Shown here: positions 1-32,000 of the stretch, piece by piece
How the letters are laid out: every line of letters begins with the position of its first letter
How positions within the stretch are numbered: position 1 is the stretch's first letter
Assembly (NCBI GenBank): GCA_963662715.1
Contig: OY759724.1
Coordinates: 1,080,001-1,112,000, forward strand
DNA from: Candidatus Omnitrophota bacterium
GTDB lineage: Bacteria > Omnitrophota > Gorgyraeia > Zapsychrales > JANLHA01
DNA length: 32,000 bases
Direction: 5' to 3'
Made by a program: the position numbers and the translations under genes
The notes under the pieces: model-generated
Database searches by the model: none
What the model was told of the DNA's origin: nothing
What the model saw: the letters and a program-made list of their open reading frames with translations, nothing else

Positions 1-3000
1 ACTGTAAGGATTTTTCAAGATAGGCCTCGATTAAGAAATCCTCCTTATCGGCATCGCTCCTGTGCCGGGAGAGATGGAGCTGTTCCCGGGCCAGCATTTC
101 ATAAATCTTAGCCGCACTTAAAAGCACGTCCATTCTCTGCGGATAAAGCGCCACAGCCCGGTCAATATATATCTGACTCCGGGTCCACAATTTCTCCCGT
201 GTATCAGGATCAGTTTCCTGACCTGCCAGGTTTGAGTATAAAAGGGCCAAAGCGCAATGCGCGAGCCCCAGGAGAGGATCTTTATCAACCGCGCGAAGTA
301 AATAAGATTCTCTTTGTTTCACGCTGTCGCAACTGGCAGCCCTGTTGAAGTCAAGAAGCGCCGGGAAAGATACTCCGGCCCATCGGGACCAGGGAAGGCG
401 TTCCAACTGTTCGGAAGACATAAAGATAATCTTTTGGCTCCGCTGATCCTCACCGATAACGGCAATCATAAGACTGTCATAGGATTTCTTAAAGTCACGG
501 TTCATAAGATCGAGGGTCAAAATACGATCTTCGTCCAGCCCGACAATAACGATAACATGCCATGTTTCATGATATCTATGCTCCATCGCGTTCACCGGCA
601 CAACCCTGGCTTCAAATCCGCTTTCCCGGGCTATTTCGTGATAAATAACAGAAAAGACCAGACAGTTGGCCATATTTAGTTTCATAAAGACTTCGATATC
701 TCCCTTGGCATTTCTGGTCGAAGGAACCGGGAAAACATTAAACTGCAAAATGTCAAACCAGAATCGGGCGATATCATTGAGGAACAAGGTTGCTTTTTCA
801 TCGTCCTCCATTTCTTGGACACGGGTTCTGATTCTTCGGGAAATATCATTTAAAGTTAAATTTTTAAACTGCCCGGAAAGAATCTCAGGGGAGTCCGAAG
901 ACATGAGTTCAGGAATAACGGCCCGGATATTGTCCGGCACAACGTCGGCAAATGTCCGGTAACGAAGAAGCCATAACGGCAGACGCTGATGAACGGCCTC
1001 AAGCAATTCTGTCCTGTGATATTCGTCCAGCACCGGAGAAGATCCAGGAATAAAACCAGCCGCTGCCACCGGTGCTGCCATAAGGATGCTTTTTTCAATT
1101 TCCACGGCGGCAATTTTATCCGTCAGAACGTTAAAGGCATTCAAAGGAACAACACTTTCGTTCCTGGTGGATAACCGCACATCTTTCAGTTGTTTGTGCC
1201 AGAATCCCCCGGAGTTGGCCGTCATGTTGCTTATAATGCACGTTCTGCAATCAGCGTCGGCCAGCATCCGGACAAACGTTCTCAGCAGATTTGTCCCGTA
1301 ACGGGAACCCCGCCCGTGTGCATCCCGGGCGATAACAATGTAAAATAACTTGCCCTGCTTATCGCCTGTGTGGACATAATAGGTCAGCTGCCCGACAACT
1401 TTCCCGCCCCGGGCCATGATAAGGATATCCTGCACAAAGTCATCAGCCAAAAGCCCGATACCATAATCCAGCGGCGGCTCAACATCTCCTTCGTGCAATC
1501 GGTATTCTCTGGGGAAGGAACTTTTGCCGTTATTTCCTAATGCTTGATATAGAGATAAAACATGGATATCGTCATCTCTTCTTGTTGATAAAATAAACTT
1601 CCCGTATAATCTGGCGGCGTCACTTAAAAGCCTGATGTTCGCAAATTCGGAAAACCGGTATTCCTCATCCAGCGACAATACCTTGCTGATGAATTGAGAA
1701 TCACTAAAACAGCTATTTCTGTCGACCTGAACGACGGCATCGAATGCCCGCCCTTTCACCCCTGTCCCTTCCTCTGAAGCAAGAATTCGCATTAATACCT
1801 CACCGACACCCTGACCGAATGAAGAGGCCGTCTGAGCCAAGGATTCCAGTGTCTGAAGCTTTTCAGAAAAATATAATTCTTCCCACCTCGTTTTGATCTG
1901 ATAGACAATCGGCTCCTCCTTCCCCTTCGCAGCGTCTTTTGTCACCGGGGAAGAATGATATTCTGCTGACATTCCAGCCATTGAGGACATATCCTGGTCG
2001 CCGGATATGTCCTGTTTCACCGGTGAACTGGAAGATGTCCCCCCTTCTTCCTCCGGGGAGGTCTCTTTGAGTTTTTCCTTATTGACATTCAAGAAATCCC
2101 ATAGCGGCTGATACATTTCATATATTTTCAGCAATCCGTCTATCAGCCCCAGCAGATAATAATAGTACGCTCCGTTCGCCTCACGCTGGTTCACCATCTC
2201 CAAAAGCTCTGGCTCTTCATCTATAAAGTAAAGACTTCTTTGCAAATCCTCATCTCCCTTAAAAAGGTTGTCGGATAAATAGTGCATGACATCACCGCGG
2301 AAATGTCCGTTCTGAGCTTCATGGTAGGAGAAAGATTCGATGCCCAGCAAATCAGGGCTGATCATTGCAAATAAGTCACAAAGATCCTGTCGGAAACCGC
2401 GCAACCCGCGGCGGTTTTCGCGGTCTGCCATCTGGAGAGACCGGCCGTGTTGATCCCGCCAGATAAAATAATTATCACGCTCGAGACTGTCTTGAATAAA
2501 ACTCGGGGAAATATGAGACGTCAGCGGCTGGACTGTTCCCATCGTATAGAGTAAAGGATATAAGATGTAATTATGAACACCGTTTCGAACAAGTGTCCCC
2601 GGATGCGTAAACGTCAGCGTCTTTCTCCCGGGCAGAAAGCGGATCAAAGGCTGGTTGGACATCAGGCCGACAACCTGTCCCGAATGTATATCCAGCAAAG
2701 GAGCTCCGGAATCACCCAAATACATATCAGACATGTCCGCAATCACCTGTTCTTCGTCCTTGCCCGGGATGCTCCTTGTTCCGATAACCTGACCTTCTTC
2801 AATAGCCGGTACGCCCTGGACAAAACGCTTTCCGGAAATGAGAACAACGCGCTTGCCGATAGAGCTTTTTTGGATTTTTAAAACTCCCAGTCTTTCATGA
2901 TTTAAAGAAGACTTCGAGAGACGGATAACCGCCACATCGTTGAGAGTATTGATCCGATTAGCTTCCGGCTCCCAGACTCTCTCTACACTGTCCCTGTTGG

Positions 3001-6000
3001 TCATAATATGACCGTAAACCTCCCGGCCGGAAGGCAAAACCACCTTAACGGTTTTCTTGGAGACAACCCCGTTATTTCTATCCGTCCACTCTGTATACAA
3101 GCCATGTTTGCTGGTAAACGCATAATAATTATACGGGTCCTCATCAACGACAAAACCGGAAAGCCCGTAGTTAACATTGGCCAATGAACCTAAACGGATA
3201 ACAGCTGATTGACCTTCCCTAAGAGTCTTTTCTCCTTCTTTACTCCATTCATCCTGCTTTAATAAAGACGGGGCGCGATCCCTGTTAAAAGCACTTAACA
3301 CCGCCGAAGAAACACGCGTACCAAAATCCGCGTCCTGGTGGGACGATTGAGGCCCGTCCTGCAAATGAATCTTTCCTGAAACCTCCTGGTCGACCGGGAG
3401 GAAAAACGCTGTCTTTCCAGCATGCCGCTCCCGGGAGTGAAATTCACTCACCGGAGAGCTGGCGCCCTTCAATAATCCCGCAACATCGTGTGACGATATG
3501 CCAACGCCCGTAACCCCGGCCTTCATCAATTCAAACGCCATACGGGAAAGCGCCCGCATGAGAATGAGCCGGTCATGCTGCCAGTCCTCCGGGATATTTG
3601 CCGTAGCCCGTTTAGCCGCCTCCAGTGTCTGACGGGCCTCGGGCAGTCCGTACATAAGTTCGATCTTGGCCGCACGGATCCAAAAGAGCGCTACTGTCCT
3701 GAGACGGTAACTGCTGACATAACCGTCTCTTACCGGATCGACCATTTCTTTGGCCTTCGCAAGGTGTTCTTTGCCGTCCTTATGTCTTCCTTCCGCAAAA
3801 ACGATCTCGGCAAAGTCAAGATGCGCTTCGTCAAACTCGAAAGCCCTCGGAGGAGCTATATCCAAGAAGGCCATAGCCTGCTCAAAAGTCTGCGCGGCCG
3901 ATTCAAGACCATGCTTCTTCTCAAACCGGTAGATCTCAAGAAGCCCCTTGAAGATATCTTCCTTATGCAAAGCCGTATCGTGATACAAATAGCTCAACTG
4001 ACGTTTGGCCTTCTCAAGAAAGGCGCGGCTTCTCTCTGTGTCCTTTGAGACGGTTATCTCCGCCATTTCAACCAGCGTCCTGATCTGAAGGAAATAATTG
4101 TAGCCCTGCTTCAAAACCTCTTCCGCCTGCTCATAATGTCCGCTCAGTGTTTCCATAAGCGCAAAAAGCCTTGACGACTCGGCGCGCTGCTGGGCTTCCA
4201 GAAGATCGATCATATCGTGCCTCTCCGCGGCGCACTGGGCAAGCGTCATGGTTTGAAAAGCCGTGGGCATCCCTAAATGCCATTTGACAAGGGCGACTTC
4301 GGCCAGGGCGCACGGCCGCTCCAGCATAGATGTTTTGGCAATAGCCATCGCCGCTTCTTCGGCCTCCTGCAATAAGCATTCCGCATTCGGCATATTGCCG
4401 TCAAAGTCATACCGTTGCTTGGCGATCCTGGCTAATGTCCTGGCAAGATGATAAAGATTCCGGTTTTGCACTTTTCTGGAAAACGTGTTTAATATCCGTA
4501 TGGTCTTGATAGCCTCTTCATACTCGCCTAGTTCTGTCAGGAATTCAGCAATTTCGGCAATGGCTTCCGGAGAGTCCGCCTCCCGGGCTTCTTCTTCTAT
4601 ACGGGAAAATGTTTTAGACAAGGCCAGCCCGGCTTCAGGCGAAATCACGACCAGAGCAGCCGGCTCTGTATCAGCGGCGGGTTTTGCAATAAGCAAACGG
4701 TAATTCCTGTTGCCCGTTCTTTCTACATCCGGGTTATAAGGATCAAACTTGTAGGATATCCAACTCTGCGATCCGTCAGCAAAAACGACAAGAAACTTAT
4801 AATCTATTTGATGCTCCTGAATAACAACGCTTAACTGCCAGAGGCCATCTTGTTCAACCATCTTAAATTCTTCGTTATCTTCATCGTTCAACCATCGGTT
4901 AAAACTCCCGCCCAGGAACACAGATTGGATTTCCTCGTGTCGTCCCCCTTGCGGTTTAAAAACAAAGGTCACTTGTGTCCCGCCGTCTTCCAGGATTTCA
5001 CAAGCAGGATAGGCGCCTTCTTCGGGCAGGCTCTCGGAAACCGGGAATATGAAATCTCCGTTATTGGCCCACATCCTGGCTTCTGCGAACAAAGGATCAT
5101 CCAATCTCATTCCGTGAGGAACGGAAAAGAGGGTCATCCCGATCTGATCATCGTTAAAGAACACTGTTCTGGCCTTTATCACAGCTGTCAATTCGTAGAA
5201 CATGTAGCAGAAACTTGAAAAAACACTTCCCCGGACACCGGCCTTTTGCGCCTTGGCCGGGATCGCCCGCCAGTCGGACGGATGATTAACCGGACCGACC
5301 CAGAAATAAAAATCAAGGTCATGGACAGGAGTCTTGTCATAAAGATGAGCCAGATATACACCCGAGTTCAAAACAGAGGCGTTGTCGCCACGGCGTACAA
5401 CCGGCGGCTCCTCACGGTCATCGGCATCCCAGGTCTGGAAATACATAAGATTGTTATTCTTATATCTTAAAAGCGTACCGGCACGAAGTACGACCTCCCG
5501 GCTTCTGCCCCAGGCCCGGGCATAACCCTCTTCATAGGCTTCCAGCATGCGATCAATGGCAGAATCTTTCAGTTCTTCCCCGCCGAATTTCAATTCCGCC
5601 CAGAGAGCAATGCGCAAAGACCTAAATTGCTCTAAACGATCATACAATGAAGCCTGATAACTGTGGGAGAGATCCGTGAACCGGACAGAGGGCTTTCCGT
5701 CGTCGTAAGAGATTTCAAAAATTTCGGGATAGATATTGCCCGTGGAATAGTCTATATGTTCCCGGCAAAGATCCTTAAGACGCAATCCTTTTCTGTGTTC
5801 TTTGCCCAGGGCGAACCCTAAGGCTTCCAGCTCCTTATTTTGTATTACCGGAGAACTCGTATTCTTTTTCTTTGTGTCCTCCCGGGAACGCAGTTGGGAG
5901 ATTTTTGTCCGGGGCATGGGGGTATCTTCTGTTGCGGTATTCCGAAGCTGCCGCCGCTGTCTTGCGCGCTGAGACAATGCTTTTATAAAATTTACCGTTC

Positions 6001-9000
6001 TGACCATAAAAAGACATATATCGCCGAGGGAAGACAAAGTCTCCGCGGCATACTTTCTCAGTTCCGGCCACATATCTTCTGCTGTGATTTTTTCAGAAAA
6101 ACAATCTTTAGTCAGCCGGGAGGTTTTTATGAGCATACGCAATATAGACATCTCATTCCGGATGACAATTTGCCTCAGGCTGGCGATATCCACTGGATCA
6201 ATCAAGCCGTTTGACTCAAAAAGTTCTGTCCCCATCCATTCTCCGTGCTTTCTTATGTGCCGTCTGAAACGGATTTTATTGGACGCTGTTAATTTAATTA
6301 AAACATCCGGTTTCACGGACAATTGGGCCAATGCGGCCGGCGCCTCCGTGCCGTCAATTATGACGACAGGACGCGTCAGGCGGGCATAGACCATAAGCCG
6401 GGCCAATTCCCGAACCATCGCCTGTTCTGAGGTTTCTCCTTCACGGCGCACGGCCTTCCTCTTTATCGCATCTATATTTAAAACCTTTATTTCCTGCGGC
6501 GTGTAGGATGCCAGGCCGATAGTCTTGATCATCTCGGCAAACATTGTTTTTCCGGTGCTGACACGGCCGGTAATCACAACAAGCGCTCTGTCTTTTATTT
6601 GGGACAAAACCTTATTTACGGAAAAATATCCTTCGAATACATTCCCGTTTTCAATCCTTTCTGCTTGTTTATGAACAGGAGAGCTGACCGGGTTGTTCTC
6701 GGAAGGACTCCTGGCCCTGCCGTCATTCCGGAGAGTAAAGAACCGGCTTATTCTGTTGCTCATTTTTTCTCGAGAGGCGGTGTCCCTCTCACCTAAAGCC
6801 GGCTTTCCGGTTTTCCTCTGCTGTTTTTGATCTTTTTCCCGTATAGGAGAACTCTGGCTTAAAGAGGCAGGGCCCTTTTCCTGCTCATTCGCCCAAATAT
6901 GGAATTGGGAATACTCAAAATCCGGGATTTCTTGAAGAACCCGTTTCTTATCTTTTAACGTTCCTTTAATAATATCGATAACAGTTCTGCTCTTTTTCTT
7001 TTTATCGGCCCCAACCCGAGTAGGAATCCGTATCCGCATCAACAAATCATAATCATGGATCAACTTGGTCCCCTGGACACAAAGGCTTTCCAATCTCTGA
7101 GATTTTATTTCCGCAAAATGATTCAATAACGGCTGGAACAAATCTTCTATAGGATCCAACTGCTCTATTTCAATTCCCGGATGCTTCCGCCATAAAGCCA
7201 GCAGAAGGGCCTCTAATTGGTTTAAATCTTTTCCTGTCTTGACCGCTATGTTTAATGGTAAATCTTTTGTTCCTTTTTCCGTACGCCAAACTCGGGAAGG
7301 AGCCTTGATATCAGGGATAGACATTAAAATCTTCCGGATGTCCTGCGGGGTCGTCTGATGCCCTGGCGATTCCCGGACGTCCAAGGCTATTCTATATACC
7401 TGCTTTGAAAAACCGGAAGTCTTAACGGATATTCTCTTAACAACGAATTTTAAAATTTGCATGGCCCTCAGCACGGCCAATAAACGTCCCGGCCTTGCCG
7501 CAGAGAATGATATGTTGATGGAATAATGACCTCTCCGGCTTTTCTCTTCATTGACAGTTAAATCCAAATTACGATTTTTCAATCTAGCGGCCGATTGCCT
7601 TAATTCCTTCAGGAGAATCTGACGGGTTCCGATCAATTGAACAAAACGGTCAAAGTCATCCGTGCATTCCTGCAACGTTCCCCTTGACAATGAATATGAT
7701 ATCCGCAGTAATTCTTCCTGCCGCAGCTGCTGTTCTGCGGAAGACAACGCCTCCACGCTGCCAGCCTGCAGCAAATCAACCAGCTGTTCCTGCCCCAAAG
7801 AGAAAGCATAACGCTTCATATCATCCCGGTCTATCACCCCTTGCCAGCAGGCTAAATATAATTCAAACTTATCTTTTAAATGTAGCCTTTCGGCCAAAGC
7901 GGACGAAAACCGGGAGAAACCGTAAGCATGGGTAATCCCGGCTTGTGCCAACAACTGCCGTTCTCCTTCTCTGCTGAGCTGCGCACGGGCTTTTCTTTCT
8001 AATCCCCAGACAGAGACGTAAAGTCTGGCGCGCCGGGTTTGCATCTTACATTCAGGAACATCAGGCTTCGCGGCTGCCGTGCCTCCCGAAGGCAACAAAA
8101 GCACATCCCCGTCTTTAATCTCATCCAGCATTTCCATCTTTTTAACGACTTTCAATGACGGGATAATCTCATCAACCTTAATCCGGACCTTAAATGTTCC
8201 GCAATAGATGCCCTTGTAAAGGCGGTCTATCTTTCGATGAGCGGCCACATCAAGAGCAATAGCCCCTTCCGGCAGACTGAGCGGGACATAATCATATTGA
8301 TCTTTACCCACCTGCTTAGCGACCAATACCGTAACGGACTTTTGGGCTCCGTAAAGATGCTGTTTGCGGATATTCGTCAACGTAGTGATGTAATCATATT
8401 CAAAATGCTGGGTGAGCCGGATATGGTTGAAAAGATCCAGGGCCTGTTTTGCCAAAGCCGGCTCATCTTTCCGCATGGAATAAACCGAATGTTTAGCGGT
8501 CCCCTGCCGGTATATTTTATAATTCTCTTCGCTGATAATAATAATTTCGATATACCGGCGCTCTTCTTCTTTTTCATATTCAGACTCCCCGAACAGAATC
8601 TGATAAGCTTCATACTTACCGCCCGTTTGCCTGGCCCGGTAAAATTTCTTTAACGGTCTGGAGACATGCTGCCATTCCGGCATGACAAACGGCAAATTCA
8701 GCAACACCGTCAACACGATGTGAATATCCTCCTCCCCTTTTACAACAAACATGCCTCCCCAAATATCACAGATCGGGTCCGTACGGCCGTCGGCCTGGTA
8801 CCGGTCTTCTTTACGGCTGTAGGAATAGGTGCTCTTAAAACGAACAGCATTTTGAGTTTTGGCCATAAAATCAGCCATATATTCCGGGATTCTCCCCGCA
8901 GGGATAAACTGTCCCGCAACTTTTTCTATCTGGCCGTGAAGGTAACCGTTAATATCCGACCATAAATCCCTGAGAGCTGTTTCCGCCGCCCTTCTGCTTG

Positions 9001-24000: not shown

Positions 24001-27000
24001 ATGTCGTTTCATCAGACAGGCTGACCGCCTGGGCGAAGATGTTTTGCTCCTGCTCGCTTAATTCAAAGCTCTTGCCCGGGAGCCACTGGGACAAAAATCG
24101 TGCTTTCCTTAAATGAAGCTGCGCCTGCAAAATGTGCTCGGTAAGACTGCGGAACAAATTGCTTTCAGCCGGCTCATCCTGCTCCAACCCCTCCGCATAT
24201 CGGCTCACAAAAGCGGCCTGGTAAAAAATGGTCCAATACAGGTCCGGATGTCTTTGAACAACATGATACCGGGTGTTCCGGCGGAACTCATTAAAGGTCT
24301 GGCGGAAGGCCTCGGCCCGGCTCATCCCCTCTCCGGTTAAATGACTCGTGACAAAACGCTGGCGGTAATCCTCCATGAAGCGGTTTAATGTTATGGCAAC
24401 GATAACCTTATTTTTCAGGAATTCAAACGCCTCTTGAATTTTATTATGGTCTTGTTGAGTCTTATAAAGTTTGGCCAGCAACGGCTGAACATGTTTCCGG
24501 AAGACAAGAGCTAACACTCCATAATCCGGTTCGGACGGATCAAGATACGCCGGATGCTCAGGATTCAGGAAATCCTGCTCCAGAATCATGCGCGGGAGTT
24601 TATACTGTCTGTACCGCAATGGTTGCAATGCTTTAAAAACCCGGGTCTTAAGGGCATTCTGCCGCCGGCTCACTTCCTGGCGTAACCGGTAAACTCTTGC
24701 ATGATTAAGACCCCGGACAATAGCCCGGCTTTCTTGAATCCTGAGTTCAAGGATCTGTTTTGTGACTTCAAATAATCCCCGGAGTTTAATAAACGCATGA
24801 GGACCTTCATCTAACAGTTGTAAGCTGTGCGTAAGAATGATACGGGCCAGTAATTTTTCTTCTACGAGAACATTTTGCAGTCTGTTTAACTGTTCTAAAA
24901 TAAGCGCCCGGACCCTGTTTGTGTCTTCATGAATGATATCCATCAGACGGTCGAGCAGATGCCTCAGTTCATAAATCCATCTTATTTCATCCAGTTCAGA
25001 ATCAACCATATGATCAACAGCCCGGAAAGCGTCCCATAAACTAGCATAAGTCAAATCACCATAAGTTTTCACGGCTGAAGCATTCCATTGACCGGCTTTT
25101 TCGAACCGCTGTCCGCGCAAATGATATAAGCCGTCTTGCTCTCTTCTTAACCGTTGTGGCGGGGTATGGCGTTCCTGCCGTAAGCGTCGGCTAAGATGGG
25201 TTTCTTTAATTTTATGCAGGGCTATTAATGTAGATGTCATAATCATATTAACGGCCGGCTCGTTATAAACAGCAAGCAAGGCCTGGACGTGATCAAACCG
25301 CTGCAATAAACCTTTCGGCAGGTTCATATCTGCAAAGAATCGAAGCTTGAGCTGAATGTCTTCAGCCACGTCAGCGAGTTCTGCCCGGAAGGGAGTTTCG
25401 TCTGATGCGGCTTTACGCTTTATAGTCAAAATGTAAATACGGAAATTCCAATCAGCGACTTGCAGCGTGACGTCCCCTAAAGCGGCTCGATACTCGAGAC
25501 GGAATTGCTTAAATTGTCTTGAAGCGGCTTTAGAAGCAGATGGGGCTTTCTGATTAAGGTCAATATGAGATATTGTGCGGTCAATAATATAAGAAGGATA
25601 CGCGAGTTTCTTTAATATGTTTCTTAAAATGATCCGGCGTGACCGGGTCCATTGCTCTGATCGCGAAACGGCCCGCTGATAAATTTGAGCTCTCAGGGCC
25701 TGAACATCTTTGGCGGGGGAGAGATCAAGGTCATTTACAAACAGTTCAACTTGTTCTTTTATCTTTTCCGGCGGGCCGTGAATCTTCCCGGACTCCTGCA
25801 GATATTCATAAACAGAGATACGATAGAGAATGTCTTCCAGATTCTTAAACCCTTGCGTAATGTACGGCTCTTCTTTATACCGGGGATGACTGTAACGCTG
25901 CCCGGCCCACCTCATGGATTGCGCGCTGATCGCATGTACAGGGCTGGGCGCCGCTATCGGGGACGCGGACTTCGGCGCGGCTTTGCCCGATTCTTTGGAA
26001 ACCGGCGAGCTGGCGGTATCGTCTGAATTTTCTGACCGTACTTCGTCCCACAATTGTTTAAGCAAATCCCTGTCCGATCTTGATATTTGCTTATAATGTG
26101 CACCCTCTTGATGGAATATATCGTTTAGCGCAGCGGCAAAATCAGCAGCAGGGTTTTTCCGTAGATAATAGCGAATAACATTTTTGAAAGCTTTGCTTCG
26201 TGCCAGCGAACCTAGCTCTCTCTCATACATCTCTCCCTTCTTATTTAATAATAAGGCGTCCAGCTGCCCTTGTTCCCATAGACGACGATACGTGAGTTCA
26301 TAAACTAAACTTAGCTCGATCATTAACTCTGTCTGATCTCTATTAATCACAATTTCATATGTTTTGTCTGCCTTAATCACAGAAAGGGCAAGAGTACGGT
26401 CGGCGCCAAAGGTAGCTCTTGGGAATCCGGCAAAGAAACTATGAGGCAGGGCTATAATCTTTATCTGACCTGCTTTTTCTTCGCTAAAGCCAAAGAAACT
26501 TCTGACTTGTGGGGCGATTTCATTTAAGTTGTGACGAGCTGCTCCTTGGATATGTGTATTAATATAGCTTTTCACCTGGCGCGCTGCAGAATGCTCAATA
26601 TGCGCGCACCCGCCACAGAAGATGAATACTGCAGCAACGATAATAACAAATGGCGGGCTGTGAATGAACCGGGCAATATACCTCCCCAAGCCCGCCATTG
26701 CGCCGGCTGTCCTGTCGATTCTAATCCGCTCGGGTGACTGAACGCCCTTACATGAGGCGGAAATGTTAAAGTTCTTGTTCACCGGAGAACTGGATAAATC
26801 TTTATCCAAGGATGTCCTTGATGAACCGGCCTGCCTCCCTTTATTCAAGGACATGTTAAACCGCTCTTCAAGCATTCTATTCAGTATGGGGTCTTCCAGC
26901 ATGACTCTTATTTTAGCCGCATCGCTGTACACATTGTTTAATCCGGGTTCAACATTTTGACTGAAAGGAGCGGTCATTTTCAGAAGATCTTCAACCGGAG

Positions 27001-30000
27001 CTTCCCTGTTAAGCACAAAAGAAACAAACGGGTTTCTATTTACGGCATCAACTATCGACGTTAAATCCTGATGCTGTATGTTCGCCAAATCAAAGAACTC
27101 GAAAAAGTGACTGTCTATATTAACGGCACCGCCGGGATAAATATCCAAATGATCCCTTGCCGTACTGAGCCTGCTCCCCCTCTCATGGATATCCTCATCA
27201 TACTCCTGCGCATAAAGTTCCGCGCTCAGGTGCCTTGCTTCACCGATAAAACTCAGTAGCCCCCGGCGCACATGCGGCAACCTTAATCCTTTACTTGATA
27301 ATATGTCCTTAAGCTGAATATAGGAAGGATCTTGCCGGACAAAATAATCAAAAACGCTTAACGCGAGCGTAATTTCAAAATGATAGGTATTTTTAACGGC
27401 TTCAATAATGTTGACGATATTACCGATGGGGATGACCGGCTTTCCTGTAGGCCCTTTTTGGCTGAAGACAAACTGATTGACGCTTAGCTGGATAATCAGA
27501 TCTTTATCCCCTGAGCACAGCAAAAGATCCCTTAAAACATTTCTGGTTATCTGCGGTGTTTTTGCCCAGAAACCATTTGTTGCCAGGGTTACGACATTCG
27601 CGTCCACGTGCCTAAGCAACATACGGACCAAATCAGGTTTAAGGAAGGGTTCTCCGCCGGTAATGCCCAAATGACTTATCCCGCCGAAAGTGTTGATCCT
27701 TTCGATAAGCAACATCGCTTCCTCCCTGCTCATCGAAGGCAGCCGTTTAACCCAGTTCGGCCAATAGCAATGCGCACACCGCAAGAGGCACCGAAGAGTG
27801 ACATATACATCCAACGATTTTATGACCGGTGAGCCGGCACGTTTCACTGCCTTTGCAGGGCCGGCCATATATTCTATTGGGCTTGAAGAAGAAGTCTTGG
27901 TTTCTTTTTCTCTGGATTCTTCTCTGGAAGCCAATCTATCACCTGCAATGATTGAAAGTGCCCCTGCTAACAGCGGGCCGGTCACGCCTAAAAATGTTTC
28001 TGCTTTATACAAGCCGTTTGCTTCCCGGCTGTGCATCCTTAATAATTCCCAGACTGTCTGGTCAATGTCCTTGCCGTACAATTGTTCTTCTTTGGCAAGC
28101 CAAACTTCTACGGCCCCTCCCCTGGTCTTTACCACACAAATAGCGCCTATCAGATGAGAATACGCGGCCAAAGGAGTCTTAACTTCTATTATTTCTCCAA
28201 CTTTGAATCTTCGCTTTGCTCTCTCGTTTATTATTTCTCCGACATACGGTCTGGCCATTAAAACAAATATCTTCTCTTTACCAAGAAATGTCTGAGCCGT
28301 ATGTTCAGGCCACATATTGAAAGCCATAATCTCACGGCACACCGTATCAGGATAGGCATTCCAGTTAACAAAAAGTCTCGGGATAATTTTACTTGCCCAT
28401 GCGCCCGGTTTTGTTGCCCCTTTCTGTTTCTTCAATTCAACTTTTCCTTCTGCAATAGCATTTACAGCGCTGACCAAAAGCCCGGCTGACAGAGGCGCAA
28501 GTTTCTCCGTAAGCGTGAAACAGGATTCCGTCAGACTTACTTCTACACCTTTCAATCTTGCAACAACCTCTCCGGTATCCCATCCTTCTTGTATCCTGTG
28601 GATAGTTATGCCTGTCTGTCTTAACCCGAATAAAACAGCGGCATGAACGGGTAAACCACCCCGCAATTGCGGCAACATCGAAGCATGAACATTAATAAAA
28701 TCGAATTTAAATGTTTGGGTAATTTTTCCTGTAATCTTATCGGGCCAAACACAAGTTACGCCAAGGTCCGCGTTTACTGTTTGTAAATATTCAATTAACT
28801 CATCGCTCTTTTCATCAACAAATACTTCGGTCCCATTTTCTTTTGCAATCTTAATGATTTCTTCACTTTCTCTCTTTGTGATTACGCTTACAACTTTAAA
28901 ATTTGCTCCTCTATCCGCAAGCAAAGACTGAAGCGATAAACGGCCAAACAGTGTCCCTTCGCTGAAAAAGACAATATTGAGCCTGCCGTAAGGTTTGGCG
29001 TAACCGGGGTATTCTTTTACCAATCCGGGAACCGGGTTACGAACTGCGGTCAAAAATCTTCCGAAATCAAACTTCTTCATCGGGCTGGAGGCCTTGCCCT
29101 CCGCATTCCTGATAGCGTCCTCAGAAACCGGAGAACTGAGACTATCCTGAGGCAAATTATTTCTTTTTGCCCATTGTTTTATTAAACTTTTCTCTGTATG
29201 TATGGGCAAATTAATAATAAAGACCGTCCCAAAATTTTTCCTGCTTTCTATTCTGAGTTTACCCTCCAGGAAATTCACGACATTCTGAATCTTCGGCAGA
29301 CCGAATCCGAACCCGGATATATTGAACACGCCGGGTTCCGAACTGGTAAACCCAACCAAAAATGCCTTGTCCAGGGCCTCCGCCGACATCCCTATCCCAT
29401 TATCGATTAGCCTCATCACAATTCCGTCTTCTTTTACATAAAGAACACATTCTATACGAAGCGGGATACCGGGCCTTCGGAACCAGATAGCATTCTTAAC
29501 AACTTCATTGCAAACCAGGTCAAACATTCCTGGCTGAGTAAAGAGTTCGGGGACTTCTGTTTTCTTCTCAACTTGGTTAAATGATACGGGCAGCCCTTCG
29601 GACCATAACGCGATGTACTCTGCAATGACCGCGTTCATTTTTTCTTCAAGAGAAACATTGTGTCGCAATATTCCGTAAGGCCTGCCGTTCATAAGCTCAT
29701 TCGCGTGCTCTAACAGCCAGATAATAAAATAGTGAATATCGAACATCTCTTTTAAGATAACCTGCACCTCGTTGCTTGTTCTGCTTTCTCTGCTAAAAGT
29801 CTCCGGGTTAGATATCAACATCCAGAAATCACTTAAACGCTTGTTTTCATCTTCTCTGGAGAAACCGGTGGAATGTCTGGGGAATCGTCTTTTGAAAATC
29901 TTTCCGTATTTGGCAAATGGGTAACTGAACTGTTCGCATAAACCGTTCCCGCTATGCTTATCCAGCTCCTTTAACAAGACATTAAGCCTTGTTACATTGT

Positions 30001-32000
30001 CAAAACATACGCCGCGCACCTTAGCGGAAAATTCTTTTCTGAAAGATTTCCCTTCCTCTTCCATAGTCCTGTTAAAGGCACCGGCGACCGCCGCAAATGT
30101 ACTCATGTTAGACTCCAGAGGAATGCTCCAGCTGCCGATTTCAAGCCGCCCAAACCTTCTAAATTTTTGATTGCTTTGTTTTGCGCCTCCCTTTACTCTG
30201 GGTTCCCCCACCGGCGAACTGGTATTATCTGTTTTACTTAACCTTGCCGCTTCGGGTTGGATAATGCCTAAGGCCACCAGTTTTTCATAAAGGGCCTTTT
30301 CCTGAATGCCCAAAGCTTCGGCAAGCTGCCCTCTCGACAGAACTTGATGGTTCGCCTCAATGAACCGCAATTCCTCCTTCTTCCTCTGAATCTCAGCCGT
30401 GGTTTTTCCAAGATCAACAGCCAGTTGGGCTTCATCCTCTTCCCTTCGCCTTGAGAGTTCTGCCTCTTCCTGATTCTGCCATTTATGCAGTTCGATATCC
30501 TCGTTAATCAATCTTCTCATATATCTGCGGTCGGCTTTATGTTGTCCGCTGTCCTCCCATCCGTATGCGGCATAGATGCCCTCAAGACCTTTCTCAAAAT
30601 AAATATCAGCGATCACTCGAAAGCCCTCCAGCATATTCTCGATGATCGCCACCGGCTTCTTAAAATGAACAGCCAGAGCCTTTGCATCCTGGGCTCCATT
30701 GGCCACAAACAGACGCCACAACAGTTTTCTTTCTTCCCGGCTCCACCGGGTATATTCAAACCAGGTCAGCCTCATCTTGATTGCACTCGTGTTCCATTCG
30801 AGATCACCGGCCAAAGTGGCATTATTCAATTCCGCATAATGGTTTCTGATATAAGCTAATTTTTCGAGCTGCTGCTTGGTTGTTTCAACATCCTTCCTGA
30901 TCTGAGCAGCTAACTTTTCTGTCTGCTCGGGCGCGGGCATCTCGCCATACGGCAGACTCTCTTTAATCCACTGAATCAATATTTTCTCCTTGGCAGGGTC
31001 CCATTTTCGCCTTCCCTGAGGACCGGCTTTCCTGACCTGCGGGGCAGGGGCGGCAGCACTATGAGGGAGTTCTCCTTCCTGGACTCCGGCGGTATCTTCT
31101 GGTTCTGATGGCGATAAAGCTTCTGCTTTCGACGGGATATCCGGACAAATTTCTGTAGGAACAATATTATTGAGGACAAGACCGGTGATGTCCAGATAAT
31201 CTTCCCCGTAAAATTCATTGATAGAAGACATCCGGGAAAAGAGAACATATCCGTGCCAATTCACGGACACGACCTGCTGCCGGGACTGATTGAAAATATA
31301 AAACGTCCCTTTCGAGCCGTACCGGTAAAAATATTTATTTGCGGCCTGTTGCCCTTCGGCCTCTCTTTCGTTGATGGTTTCTTTGATCTTCTTTTCGTGT
31401 GCACGTGGATCACGCTGCCTATCAATCTTAAAGTCCCTTTCTCCCCGCAAAACGGCCACGATATCCCGGCTTAACCCCGCGTTAATCTTTCCGGCCCCGA
31501 TCTTATCCGCCGCGCCAAGAACATGAGCGGCAAAACCTTCCTCCGAAAATTCCAGAATACGCATCACGTCACCCAGAGGCCCAACGACAACAACTAAAAA
31601 TCTTTGGCCCTTTTCCAAATAAAAATGTTTATAAAACCGCGTCGCACCGCTTCTGTCCTGATAACGGCTCCCCCGGAAAACTTTCCCTTCCCTTAAAACA
31701 TGGGCAATATTGGAAATCACTTCTTCTTCATTAACAATCCTTCTTGCCTGAATATCTGCCCCGAAATACGTATCCCCGGTTCTGGCATGATTATTCACAA
31801 GCATTTCGCCAACCCGCTGCCATCCAAAAGGCCGTTTCCCGCGGTAAGAGGGGTACCCCTGGAATAAGACACAGACGTCAGGGACAACAACTTCCCTTCC
31901 TCTGTGTCGGAAGATCAGCTCCAAGCCTTGCCTTTCCACAACCGCAAGCGGCAGGAACCATCCGCTCTGAATCTCCCGGGTTAAACCGACCGCCTTTATC
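1..32000 (-). CDS. Internal fragment of one giant multidomain ORF (at least 10,666 codons; neither start nor stop codon lies in the window)
   Basis: The minus-strand frame with codon first bases at 31999, 31996 ... 4 was translated by hand end to end. It gives protein-like sequence with no in-frame TAA/TAG/TGA. All recognised motifs share this one frame: three CxxxCxxC, GDSGAP, GGTGFIG/YxxxK, Walker A, HLHFQ, VLVVGPGSG and 20 SSPV. I checked each anchor coordinate as equal to 1 mod 3. The supplied ORF track has no entry in this frame but has entries in the other five, as expected if the ORF is open at both window edges. Confidence 0.9.
2..330 (-). other. TPR-like helical repeats (C-terminal-most part of the ORF in this window)
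   Basis: Translation: ...LLRAVDKDPLLGLAHCALALLYSNLAGQETDPDTREKLWTRSQIYIDRAVALYPQRMDVLLSAAKIYEMLAREQ... This is a helix-hairpin pattern directly after a transglutaminase-like core, a SirB1/YchA-type arrangement. Confidence 0.4.
470..700 (-). other. Transglutaminase-like (papain-fold) Cys-His-Asp core
   Basis: Translation: MANCLVFSVIYHEIARESGFEARVV...ETWHVIVIVGLDEDRILTLDLMN. The Cys codon is at 662-664, His at 557-559 and Asp at 509-511, in the canonical order and spacing. Confidence 0.45.
1185..1440 (-). other. GNAT-family N-acetyltransferase domain
   Basis: Translation: DILIMARGGKVVGQLTYYVHTGDKQGKLFYIVIARDAHGRGSRYGTNLLRTFVRML. An acetyl-CoA binding motif A-like R-G-x-G-x-x-G-x-x-L lies at 1283-1330. 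Confidence 0.6.
2645..3205 (-). other. Trypsin-fold (PA clan, S1/Trypsin_2-like) serine protease domain with complete catalytic triad
   Basis: His lies in FTSKHGLY (codon 3104-3106), Asp in LNDVAVIRL (2936-2938) and Ser in MYLGDSGAPLLD (2708-2710). They occur in the canonical H-D-S order and spacing, followed by GQVVGLMS. Confidence 0.8.
3515..4570 (-). other. TPR-like / all-helical repeat region
   Basis: About 350 aa of amphipathic helix pairs, for example EAIAEIAEFLTELGEYEEAIKTIRIL, GHYEQAEEVLKQGYNYFLQI, SRAFLEKAKRQLSYLY and GKEHLAKAKEMVDP. Confidence 0.55.
4728..4975 (-). other. CBM48/AMPK-beta-type (E-set) carbohydrate-binding-like beta-sandwich
   Basis: Translation: VTFVFKPQGGRHEEIQSVFLGGSFNRWLNDEDNEEFKMVEQDGLWQLSVVIQEHQIDYKFLVVFADGSQSWISYKFDPYNP. 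It matches the V-F-x-W...V-x-L-x-G-S-F-N-x-W...G-x-W...Y-K-F pattern. Confidence 0.55.
6200..6590 (-). other. P-loop NTPase / small-molecule kinase-like domain
   Basis: Walker A motif LVVITGRVSTGKTMFAEMI at 6542-6571, followed by a hydrophobic strand VVIIDGTE (Walker B-like). Confidence 0.65.
7300..7530 (-). other. ACT-like domain (C-terminal part of an RSH-type module)
   Basis: Translation: HYSINISFSAARPGRLLAVLRAMQILKFVVKRISVKTSGFSKQVYRIALDVRESPGHQTTPQDIRKIL. This is a beta-alpha-beta-beta-alpha-beta pattern, positioned as in RelA/SpoT C-termini. Confidence 0.4.
8095..8290 (-). other. TGS domain
   Basis: Translation: DYVPLSLPEGAIALDVAAHRKIDRLYKGIYCGTFKVRIKVDEI...LDEIKDGDVLLL. It matches the TGS pattern (P-x-G-[AS]-T/I-x-x-D-x-A ... 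G-x-x-V ... L-x-D-G-D). Confidence 0.5.
8460..8860 (-). other. RelA/SpoT-like (RSH) nucleotide pyrophosphokinase domain, partly degenerate
   Basis: VRFKSTYSYSRKE gives an exact R-x-K-x-x-x-S-x-x-x-K (8807-8842). CDIWGGMFVV corresponds to D-x-x-G-x-R with Arg replaced by Met (Asp codon 8765-8767). RYIEIIIISEENY stands in place of EIQIRT (8525-8548). GTAKHSVYSMRK stands in place of G-x-AAHW-x-YK. Confidence 0.5.
10800..11200 (-). other. Possible degenerate GHKL-type ATPase-like module
   Basis: Translation: VLAHTVENMMDLY...DILLRLISNGASF...FFGGRGEGNAIM...GLVVEVIIAK. It loosely follows the N-box, G1, G2 and final-strand order. The call is weak. Confidence 0.25.
12890..13345 (-). other. Class I SAM-dependent methyltransferase domain
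   Basis: Motif I RVLVVGPGSGIDAW at 13253-13285, an acidic/loop motif II region EIIYAIGLN, and a motif IV-like FDFVLWNMQ. Confidence 0.65.
14460..14655 (-). other. Small Cys-His-Asp (transglutaminase/papain-like) core within a 226-aa SSPV-delimited module
   Basis: Translation: GDHLCREFGYILGQVLAQIL...KTHYVIVFYYQTIPVLGIDPTFGQF. The Cys codon is at 14642-14644, His at 14519-14521 and Asp at 14471-14473. Confidence 0.35.
15990..17255 (-). other. Class B (cobalamin-binding domain plus radical SAM) enzyme module
   Basis: The N-terminal part is B12-binding-like: RILLVGPTNP...PPFGLYRIASFLKVFGFEVDVYDA...DMIGFSML...VIIAGGQGAQF (about 16830-17255). It is followed by VRVYFETECPMGCDFCSS, with CxxxCxxC at 16565-16588. 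Confidence 0.75.
17890..18430 (-). other. HIT-superfamily (GalT / Ap4A-phosphorylase / GDP-hexose-phosphorylase branch) nucleotidyltransferase-like domain
   Basis: KCPLCD at 18413-18427, then FHIVIVPLDH, then NAGNSQRHLHFQGYY with the HxHxQ signature at 18143-18160. Confidence 0.55.
19360..19990 (-). other. Possible Tiki/TraB/ChaN-like domain (tentative)
   Basis: A C-terminal PIVVGFGALHFEIIKNE (19367-19402) resembles the VVGxxHL motif of this superfamily. An upstream GTVYLRGYEH could be the N-terminal motif. The call is weak. Confidence 0.2.
20084..20194 (-). other. Internal lipoprotein-signal-peptide-like segment (Met, basic n-region, hydrophobic core, lipobox L-S-G-C)
   Basis: Translation: MAKMFRINGARAPGIFRMILIFFILLPQLVFLSGCAS. 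The in-frame ATG is at 20194-20192 and the Cys codon at 20092-20090. The reading frame is open upstream, so this is not a demonstrable gene start. Confidence 0.55.
20400..21360 (-). other. Extended-SDR NAD(P)-dependent epimerase/dehydratase domain
   Basis: Rossmann motif KVLLIGGTGFIGRS (GGTGFIG at 21323-21343). Catalytic S...YDLSK has Tyr at 20915-20917 and Lys at 20903-20905. Also IYVDDAAEAM. Confidence 0.85.
21670..22670 (-). other. Radical SAM domain 2 with Cys-rich C-terminal extension (SPASM/twitch-like)
   Basis: ELEIQSPYCSMGCEHCIG has CxxxCxxC at 22607-22630. Also LSGLFGEPL. Downstream cysteines lie in KKCWAMLF...GRMYPCDH...HCQVCSPW. Confidence 0.75.
23040..23950 (-). other. APH / choline-kinase / homoserine-kinase-II-type phosphotransferase domain
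   Basis: Catalytic loop VHNDLHVGNFIF at 23315-23341, followed by VIAIIDFAMA (the Mg-binding D-F equivalent). The N-lobe-like part is YILEEFMGDG. Confidence 0.7.
26606..26698 (-). other. Internal signal-peptide/TM-like hydrophobic segment with Cys-rich end
   Basis: Translation: MAGLGRYIARFIHSPPFVIIVAAVFIFCGGCAH. The in-frame ATG is at 26698-26696. It lies 27 codons after the SSPV at 26780-26791. Confidence 0.45.
27008..27814 (-). other. Radical SAM domain 1
   Basis: LDVYVTLRCLLRCAHCYW has CxxxCxxC at 27767-27790. HLGITGGEPFL is a GGE SAM-binding motif. Confidence 0.8.
28030..28984 (-). other. Formyltransferase (Fmt/ArnA-N-like; N- and C-terminal subdomains)
   Basis: NIVFFSEGTLFGRLSLQSL, then FDFINVHASMLPQLRGGLPVHAAVLFG (about 28670-28693), then TGITIHRIQEGWDTGEVV, and a following beta-barrel-like C-terminal subdomain. 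Confidence 0.8.
29200..29550 (-). other. GHKL / histidine-kinase-type ATPase domain (HATPase_c)
   Basis: N-box DLVCNEVVKNAI (about 29490-29512), G1 LIDNGIGMS (about 29389-29406), G2 SGFGFGLPKI, and GTVFIINLP. Confidence 0.75.
30362..31009 (-). other. Three tandem SANT/Myb-like tryptophan repeats followed by an HTH-like segment
   Basis: The three repeats are RKWDPAKEKILIQWIKE..., TRWSREERKLLWRLFVANGAQDAKALAVHFKKPVAIIENML and HKWQNQEEAELSRRREEDEAQLAVDLGKTTAEIQRKKEEL. They are followed by SRGQLAEALGIQEKALYEKL. Confidence 0.4.

Follow-up and report, generated by a model that had tools for sequence, protein, structure and literature searches.

Giant proteins of Candidatus Omnitrophota are suspected to be cleaved at points not yet known (West-Roberts et al. 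2023, preprint, 10.1101/2023.11.21.568195). The missing cleavage points prevented the splitting of these proteins for structure prediction, and the peptidases proposed to act on them are C39 and S8 peptidases, not trypsin-fold enzymes (10.1101/2023.11.21.568195). Whether Omnitrophota proteins of 10,000-150,000 amino acids (aa) operate as a single chain or as many products is an explicit open question. Here, a stretch of 32,000 nucleotides (nt) from a Candidatus Omnitrophota bacterium (assembly GCA_963662715.1, contig OY759724.1, positions 1,080,001 to 1,112,000), hereafter the window, was analysed. A giant open reading frame (ORF) of 10,666 codons fills its minus strand (2..31999) as a single stop-free frame that is open at both window ends. 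The tetrapeptide SSPV recurs 20 times in this frame, mostly in polar linkers between unrelated modules, and a serine protease domain embedded in the chain has SSPV at both ends of its module. Cleavage of the chain at these sites by some protease is likely, and it is on balance probable that the giant ORF is a self-processing polyprotein cut at SSP[V/I/M] by the embedded protease of the Trypsin_2 family.

The closest described proteins are other Omnitrophota giants. A preprint on them defines a 'multi-enzyme metabolic cluster' class with HATPase_c, methyltransferase, GNAT, and radical SAM domains, and reports that 80% of the giants are sequence singletons. The protein in the window shares these four families. 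It also has an ORF of more than 10,000 aa that holds many distinct Pfam families with none dominating, and its sequence is likewise an orphan whose few detectable relatives include two proteins from Omnitrophota metagenome-assembled genomes (MAGs). It differs in that very few transmembrane-like segments are found in the window, whereas 94% of the catalogued giants possess membrane-spanning helices or a signal peptide. Both West-Roberts et al. (2023) and a preprint by Nielsen and Lui (2026) are silent on junction motifs and on trypsin-fold proteases. When full texts were searched for SSPV together with 'polyprotein' or 'cleavage site', nothing relevant was returned, in agreement with an earlier note on this DNA that knew of no system using the motif.

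Viral polyproteins processed by picornavirus 3C, nidovirus 3CLpro, or the serine proteases of sobemoviruses and astroviruses follow a comparable plan. In both cases one ORF carries many unrelated modules, an embedded protease is bracketed by its own sites, and the boundaries carry a short consensus with non-prime-side information. The source here is cellular, the products would be metabolic enzymes rather than replication or capsid proteins, and their release by cleavage is a prediction. The viral chymotrypsin-fold proteases take Gln or Glu at P1, as opposed to the Val, Ile, or Met proposed here. Moreover, no sequence relationship to the viral proteases was detectable, and no phage or viral contig matched. 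A second likeness is that of substrates only. The classical elastase substrate is Ala-Ala-Pro-Val, and the substrates of elastase and alpha-lytic protease present the same small-small-Pro-Val order from P4 to P1. A third parallel is engineered. In 'fuse-and-cleave' designs, nif genes are joined by tobacco etch virus (TEV) protease sites, and the logic is the same, with pathway enzymes made in fixed stoichiometry from a chain with a repeated linker site (PMC6130400). Those designs are synthetic and use a heterologous protease and site (PMC6130400), whereas the arrangement in the window is apparently natural, with divergent codons at each site.

The SSPV tetrapeptide and its codons

The giant frame is the minus-strand frame at offset 1, which has no stops, while each of the remaining five frames has 314-678 stops. 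The full protein must be longer than 10,666 aa, since the ORF runs past both window ends. Exact SSPV occurs 20 times in the frame against 0.13 expected from composition, and 2000 shuffles of the frame averaged 0.135 and never exceeded 3. No other tetrapeptide is as frequent; next come ASSP and SSSP, with seven copies each, which overlap SSPV. The tripeptides SPV and SSP are over-represented 12-14 times, and all other tripeptides 3.8 times at most. SSP itself is present 24 times and the next residue is always V (20 copies), I (three), or M (one). The information is restricted to these four residues. The residue before the motif is small and the one after it is unconstrained, with G, S, N, E, R, Q, T, I, K, H, and L all represented. 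About ten variants stand beside the 20 exact copies, giving ~30 predicted positions. The earlier note had listed the same 20 copies and six of the variants (NSPV twice, SSPI three times, GSPV once); every coordinate pair matches exactly, and its expectation of fewer than one copy by chance is borne out.

Might the motif be an accident of Ser/Pro-rich linkers? The 1000 residues flanking the sites contain 9.8% Ser and only 4.5% Pro, a composition that predicts 0.023 SSPV per 1000 aa and therefore cannot account for the count. The same four residues can be ordered in 11 other ways, nine of which occur 0-1 times; the remaining two, SPVS (four copies) and VSSP (two), are of a type able to overlap an SSPV site. 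No point in support of chance or a compositional artefact was found, and this explanation is, within the window, refuted with near certainty. The predicted positions are as follows.

30209..30220, minus strand: SSPV at aa 594, between a module without assignment and the HATPase_c module
29126..29137, minus strand: SSPV at aa 955, ahead of the formyltransferase
29078..29089, minus strand: SSPM variant at aa 971, in tandem, 16 aa downstream of aa 955; new to the list
27875..27886, minus strand: SSPI variant at aa 1372, separating Formyl_trans_C from a viperin-like radical SAM domain
27824..27835, minus strand: GSPV variant at aa 1389, in tandem, 17 aa downstream of aa 1372
26780..26791, minus strand: SSPV at aa 1737
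26000..26011, minus strand: SSPV at aa 1997
25955..25966, minus strand: ASPI variant at aa 2012, in the linker of aa 1997; new to the list
25937..25948, minus strand: PSPV variant at aa 2018, in the linker of aa 1997; new to the list
23984..23995, minus strand: PSPI variant at aa 2669, 5 aa ahead of the SSPV at aa 2674; new to the list
23969..23980, minus strand: SSPV at aa 2674
22838..22849, minus strand: SSPI variant at aa 3051, between the APH-like kinase and radical SAM domains
20363..20374, minus strand: SSPV at aa 3876, at the end position of free-standing epimerases/dehydratases
18758..18769, minus strand: NSPV variant at aa 4411, 17 aa ahead of the SSPV at aa 4428; its AAC codon is one nucleotide from AGC
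18707..18718, minus strand: SSPV at aa 4428, with DUF4922 beginning 58 aa downstream
14846..14857, minus strand: SSPV at aa 5715, paired in tandem with the next site, 19 aa on
14789..14800, minus strand: SSPV at aa 5734, second of the pair with aa 5715
14099..14110, minus strand: SSPV at aa 5964, ahead of the HemK-like methyltransferase module
12737..12748, minus strand: SSPV at aa 6418
11408..11419, minus strand: SSPV at aa 6861
10781..10792, minus strand: SSPV at aa 7070, one of two sites outside polar linkers
9704..9715, minus strand: SSPV at aa 7429
9644..9655, minus strand: NSPV variant at aa 7449, 20 aa downstream of the SSPV at aa 7429
6842..6853, minus strand: SSPI variant at aa 8383, in a long linker shared with the SSPV at aa 8439
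6674..6685, minus strand: SSPV at aa 8439, with the P-loop NTPase module beginning ~20 aa downstream
5846..5857, minus strand: SSPV at aa 8715
3449..3460, minus strand: SSPV at aa 9514, N-terminal boundary of the protease module
2018..2029, minus strand: SSPV at aa 9991, C-terminal boundary of the protease module; forms a tandem pair with the next site, 25 aa on
1943..1954, minus strand: SSPV at aa 10016, start of the GNAT-like module
1031..1042, minus strand: SSPV at aa 10320, equivalent to the stop codon of a 47%-identical homologue

At about seven junctions, two or three copies or variants of the motif stand 15-25 aa from one another (14789-14857, 1943-2029, 18707-18769, 9644-9715, 27824-27886, 25937-26011, and 29078-29137). 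If both sites of a pair were cut, short spacer peptides would be released. The pairing itself is probably not significant: by our estimate, chance would produce it this often among sites restricted to ~37 short linkers.

Is the peptide conserved, or the DNA that encodes it? No DNA conservation extends beyond the 12 nt of the motif copies. Within them, every first and second codon position is fixed, in contrast to columns 6 and 12, two third positions at which the bases are randomised, and both serine codon families are present at both Ser positions, with TCN used for Ser1 in four copies and AGY for Ser2 in four. The earlier note's view that conservation lies at the protein level and is not a DNA repeat thus stands. 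Its further statement that the codons differ between copies needs a qualification, since the choice is not free: Ser1 is encoded by AGY in 16 of 20 copies (33% overall, p = 2e-5) and Pro by CCG in 17 of 20 (52% overall, p = 0.002). Neighbouring-codon context does not account for either bias. The N and G variants at Ser1 are encoded by AAC and GGC, single-nucleotide neighbours of AGC, and the AGY bias may reflect this mutational neighbourhood of tolerated residues, which would explain the bias only in part.

These biases speak for a different explanation, in which the 12-nt element (AGYTCNCCGGTN) is a historical scar of gene fusion or acts on mRNA or DNA and the peptide is incidental. It would also fit that 11 of the 20 copies match AG[TC]TC.CCGGT, all 11 of them in frame. 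The randomised third positions, the use of the second serine family, three copies without CCGG, the sharp limit at 12 nt, and the mutational route to AGY all speak against such an element, as does the presence of 351 CCGG in the window. It is considered very improbable. Furthermore, blastp comparison of segments of the giant ORF detected no mutual similarity, indicating that the modules are unrelated. The motif was therefore not carried by a duplicated cassette and has been kept independently at each junction. A DNA repeat or duplicated linker cassette was rejected on the same grounds, the flanking DNA being unconserved and the modules not paralogous.

Modules, linkers and protein ends

The chain was split at the SSPV sites and each piece was scanned against Pfam and NCBIfam. 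Around 14 distinct Pfam families are tiled over the giant ORF. In other words, several unrelated, independently folding modules are present in one ORF. The pieces with domain matches are listed below.

aa 594-954: HATPase_c
aa 955-1736: Formyl_trans_N, Formyl_trans_C, and a viperin-like radical SAM domain
aa 2674-3875: APH-like kinase, radical SAM, and NAD-dependent epimerase/dehydratase
aa 4428-5714: DUF4922 (Ap4A-phosphorylase-like) and B12-binding radical SAM
aa 5964-6417: HemK-like methyltransferase (weak match)
aa 7429-8438: RelA/SpoT-like (weak match)
aa 8439-8714: P-loop NTPase (weak match)
aa 8715-9513: TPR
aa 9514-9990: Trypsin_2
aa 9991-10319: GNAT
aa 10320 to the window end: transglutaminase-core (weak match) and TPR

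About ten pieces gave no domain match in these Pfam and NCBIfam scans. Scans with NCBIfam, PADLOC, and relaxed Pfam thresholds added only the HemK-like methyltransferase and the viperin-like similarity. The spacing described in the earlier note, with sites about 200-1300 aa apart and one or two recognisable domains in each interval, needs correction on both counts: 19 intervals exceed 200 aa and two are just 19 and 25 aa, and about half of the 19 long intervals are without a Pfam domain while one has three.

The sites are located predominantly where the chain is predicted to be disordered. With the motif residues excluded, 18 of the 20 SSPV copies lie in or adjoin the regions of top-10% disorder propensity (permutation p < 5e-5), and their flanks are polar. 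Domains hidden by the cutting were sought in junction-centred rescans, in which a 404-aa segment was centred on each site; no domain envelope crossed residues 201-204 of the segment at any site.

Three independent pointers suggest that the sites coincide with natural protein termini. The first concerns the SSPV at aa 3876. Solved epimerases/dehydratases align from their own residue 2-17 at ~aa 3545, and their C-termini project 0-15 aa before this site. The second is that HATPase_c, normally the final domain of histidine kinases, ends 21 aa upstream of the SSPV at aa 955. The third comes from protein P0002, which is 47% identical to the GNAT-like module and represents the terminal part of an upstream-open ORF. 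Its stop lies 30 aa past a conserved AFNV block. The corresponding distance in the window, from this block to the V of the SSPV at aa 10320, is 31 aa, and the chain then runs on into the next module.

Only three weak hydrophobic segments were found in the 10,666 aa, the true N-terminus being outside the window. Two of them follow SSPV sites.

26621..26677, minus strand: hydrophobic segment at aa 1775-1793 (FVIIVAAVFIFCGGC), 38 aa past the SSPV at aa 1737 and ending in FCGGC
20105..20161, minus strand: hydrophobic segment at aa 3947-3965, with a basic stretch ahead, 71 aa past the SSPV at aa 3876

The segment at aa 1775-1793 could be a signal anchor or a lipoprotein-like signal, which would become N-proximal only once the chain is cut; the one at aa 3947-3965 is a possible signal anchor. 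The FCGGC end of the former resembles the lipobox-like signals of an Omnitrophota locus, L002, described below.

Could SSPV be a recognition element in an intact chain? It might be phosphorylated at Ser-Pro, serve as an O-glycosylation sequon, or provide a short linear motif to which the TPR repeats or another module dock. Short linear motifs do sit in disordered linkers, and the chain contains both an APH-like kinase module and TPR repeats. The linkers contain Ser-Pro, and the sole kinase-like domain is an APH-family fragment; no CMGC-type kinase was seen in the Pfam scans. The motif has a strict V/I/M after Pro and then no constraint, a pattern that to our knowledge matches no bacterial kinase or glycosylation sequon. 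The modules are of cytoplasmic type (radical SAM, nucleoside diphosphate (NDP)-sugar enzymes), which argues against periplasmic O-glycosylation. An uncut element would also leave unexplained both the coincidence of sites with termini and the presence of a protease bracketed by sites, and it is thought unlikely.

Separate translation of the modules is not indicated either, since Shine-Dalgarno-plus-start signals are not enriched after the junctions (11 of 20, compared with 8.9 at random). Internal translation starts were rejected on this basis.

What might the modules do together? The formyltransferase N and C domains are joined to a radical SAM domain at aa 955-1736 (window 26792-29137), and the top defence-library match of this radical SAM domain is a prokaryotic viperin (pVip, E = 9e-7). 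Together with the epimerase/dehydratase further on, the formyltransferase recalls ArnA-like NDP-sugar chemistry. The set also includes nucleotidyl- and phospho-transferase-like domains and several radical SAM enzymes. With the methyltransferase and GNAT modules, this combination of domains suggests nucleotide-sugar or nucleotide modification. The window has a G+C content of 43-52% and a plus-strand GC skew that is negative throughout. The only plus-strand ORFs longer than 150 aa, at 3575-4048 and 12059-12568, are both antisense to the giant frame.

The embedded serine protease

The module that contains the protease is itself delimited, at each end, by the short consensus found repeatedly at module boundaries. 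Three features in the C-terminal part of the frame bear on the identity of a cutting enzyme.

2018..3448, minus strand: protease module, aa 9518-9994, with SSPV at both ends
2663..3160, minus strand: Trypsin_2 (PF13365) domain, aa 9614-9779, a Pfam match
530..742, minus strand: transglutaminase-core-like (papain-fold) domain, a Pfam match with E = 6.8e-4 and 20.3 bits, under the curated cut-off of 23 bits

The Trypsin_2 match covers profile positions 2-144 of 144 with E = 1.2e-10 and 42.7 bits against a cut-off of 27.6. The catalytic motifs are H9632 in TSKHG, D9688 in NDVAVIRL, and S9764 in GDSGAP, and they align with those of the trypsin-family structure Der p 3, a marginal match in a search of PDB sequences. 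The domain is an embedded trypsin-fold serine protease with a complete His-Asp-Ser triad. No other homologue of the protease was found in the PDB sequence search, and the protease module gave no match in a word-indexed search of 5.8 billion proteins even at E <= 10. Proteolytic processing is the best-supported candidate function of the motif, because the chain contains a complete serine-protease module and this module is bracketed by SSPV.

A short P4-P1 pattern with non-prime-side information is usual for substrates of S1-family proteases. HtrA/DegP proteases, which share the Trypsin_2 family and its catalytic motifs with the enzyme in the window, prefer Val at P1, then Ile or Leu, and are nearly free at P1' (PMC6509562). 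This preference fits a motif that ends in V, I, or M and is followed by an unconstrained residue. The likeness has limits. One or two C-terminal PDZ domains are an HtrA feature, and Pfam scans detected no PDZ domain anywhere in the window. HtrA degrades unfolded proteins, as opposed to recognising a defined tetrapeptide, and the enzyme here has an Asp at the position of trypsin Asp189. We infer the assignment of enzyme to site.

Other routes to the same ends were considered and rejected. Signal peptidase I disallows Val at -1, which is the residue it would meet here. Skipping of the 2A type, inteins, and other autoprocessing domains do not suit linkers that are short and otherwise unconserved. 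After cleavage, a C-terminus in S-P-V would fit a class I PDZ ligand ([S/T]-X-hydrophobic-COOH), a role for which the window holds no detected PDZ domain.

Might another peptidase cut the sites, with the Trypsin_2 enzyme acting on some other substrate? The C-terminal transglutaminase-core module is a second candidate for a processing peptidase; its Cys is also a Cys in an Omnitrophota homologue (P0003). A protease encoded elsewhere could act as well, and C39 and S8 peptidases have been proposed for other giant proteins (West-Roberts et al., 10.1101/2023.11.21.568195). Moreover, the Asp at the trypsin-189 position of Trypsin_2 fits a Val at P1 poorly. The transglutaminase-core match stays below its cut-off, S1/HtrA-type enzymes typically recognise short non-prime-side motifs with a beta-branched aliphatic residue at the end (PMC6509562), and the module with sites on both sides is the serine protease. 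Cutting by a different peptidase therefore appears rather improbable, and the embedded Trypsin_2 protease remains the preferred enzyme.

Relatives and the weighing of cleavage

Few relatives were detected. A word-indexed protein search with the N-terminal 5000 aa gave a single match, P0001, and the same search with the C-terminal 5000 aa gave none at 1e-10, a threshold that in our judgement was too strict. An exhaustive HMMER search with the last 1200 aa recovered three proteins out of 1.84 billion. No related locus was found in viral, GTDB-representative genome, or JGI metagenome contigs, queried with a single protein or an alignment (A1), and tblastn against plasmids and phages gave no match. 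Five proteins were obtained across all searches, only two of which carry an organism name. Annotation places these two fragments, P0003 and P0004, in Candidatus Omnitrophota MAGs, and they show 22% and 39% identity. The closest relative anywhere is P0002.

P0001 is a complete multi-radical-SAM protein of 5727 aa (gene 461-17644 of locus L001, a 19,703-nt Logan contig of SRR22387926). This unrelated giant enzyme fusion has a signal-like segment at its N-terminus, followed by three or more radical SAM/B12-binding units. No recurrent tetrapeptide was found in P0001, so giant enzyme fusions do not carry the motif as a rule. P0003, P0004, and the ORF that follows P0003 in locus L002 have linker tetrapeptides of the form SS[S/P]-hydrophobic (SSPF, SSPL, SSSI, SSSV, SSSL, and SSSM among them), at 2-4 per fragment against 0.1-0.3 expected. 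The L002 locus (Candidatus Omnitrophota MAG GCA_043821045.1, contig JBDRDG010000106.1, 1-6612) contains a 782-aa ORF end and, 3 nt on, a second ORF of more than 1420 aa. Both L002 ORFs have internal lipoprotein-type signal peptides with a lipobox-like FTGC or MTSC, and a Ser-rich linker of the SS[S/P]-hydrophobic kind stands ahead of each. Several of the SS[S/P]-hydrophobic linkers in L002 are followed within ~15-25 aa by such a mid-chain signal (...VFTGC, ...IFTGC, ...FMTSC), and these make sense as N-terminal signals only if the chain is cut upstream.

P0004 (locus L004, Candidatus Omnitrophota MAG GCA_042562555.1) retains, at residues 610-701, the N-terminal part of the protease as far as the catalytic His with 39% identity. 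Past a Ser-rich stretch its chain runs straight into a radical SAM domain. It may represent a truncated or degenerate protease in another giant ORF.

Several observations weigh against a self-processing polyprotein cut at SSP[V/I/M] by the embedded protease. Some concern the sites. The polar context noted earlier applies to 18 of the 20 copies, and those at aa 7070 and aa 10320 lie in hydrophobic context. The earlier claim that the motif marks nearly every junction was overstated: only 18 of the 37 top-10% disorder-propensity regions carry it, and several domain junctions, among them the radical SAM/epimerase junction near aa 3545, are without it. The unexplained codon bias leaves space for a nucleic-acid-level or historical component. 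Others concern the enzyme. A local alignment without gaps pairs D9758 with trypsin Asp189. The latter dictates Arg or Lys at P1 in trypsin, not Val, and no conserved basic residue was found near the SSPV motif. No PDZ domain was detected in the protease module (E <= 0.01) or in its C-terminal 201 aa (E <= 0.5), and a single-sequence AlphaFold model of the protease was unusable (pLDDT 31). The relatives add a third group. The aligned upstream linker of P0002 has no SSPV, and no homologue with a conserved SSPV was found; for the positional conservation raised in the earlier note, the comparison covered three distant fragments, none of which has exact SSPV. Among them, the Omnitrophota fragments show only the looser motif, and since that pattern was defined post hoc its probabilities are optimistic. 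The earlier proposal of a functional junction signal is backed by the enrichment, the location in linkers, the lack of spanning domains, and the coincidence with termini, and the motif, its placement, and the bracketed protease module are observed, while cleavage, the scissile bond, and the cutting enzyme are inferred.

How would the giant chain be processed? An operon's worth of enzymes would be translated whole as one chain, and its exposed polar linkers would present SSP[V>I>M]. The embedded serine protease (aa 9614-9779) would read the motif as P4-P1 and would probably cut after the aliphatic residue. The first cut would be made around the protease itself and the remainder in trans. The outcome would be the freed protease along with about 20 other proteins in fixed stoichiometry, all with ...SSPV-COOH as their C-terminus. 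In two of them, the new N-terminus would lie close to a hydrophobic segment that resembles a signal anchor. A wider proposal, offered tentatively, is that Omnitrophota giant ORFs are operon equivalents, that a protease within the chain cuts it at SS[S/P]-aliphatic sites specific to the lineage (in this case strict SSPV), and that some modules then expose signal peptides or lipoprotein signals and are exported.

Polyprotein processing is known; what would be new is its use in a cellular multi-enzyme giant gene. The prediction offered is specific: a four-residue site, ~30 positions, and a named candidate enzyme with its catalytic serine. If the wider proposal is true, cellular giant polyproteins would have their first defined cleavage grammar, and giant genes could be split in silico into their real products. 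If the prediction for the window holds, it would provide an annotation rule for such genes and a compact protease-and-site pair for synthetic 'fuse-and-cleave' designs. It would also mean that a cellular organism uses a viral polyprotein strategy for a whole set of enzymes.

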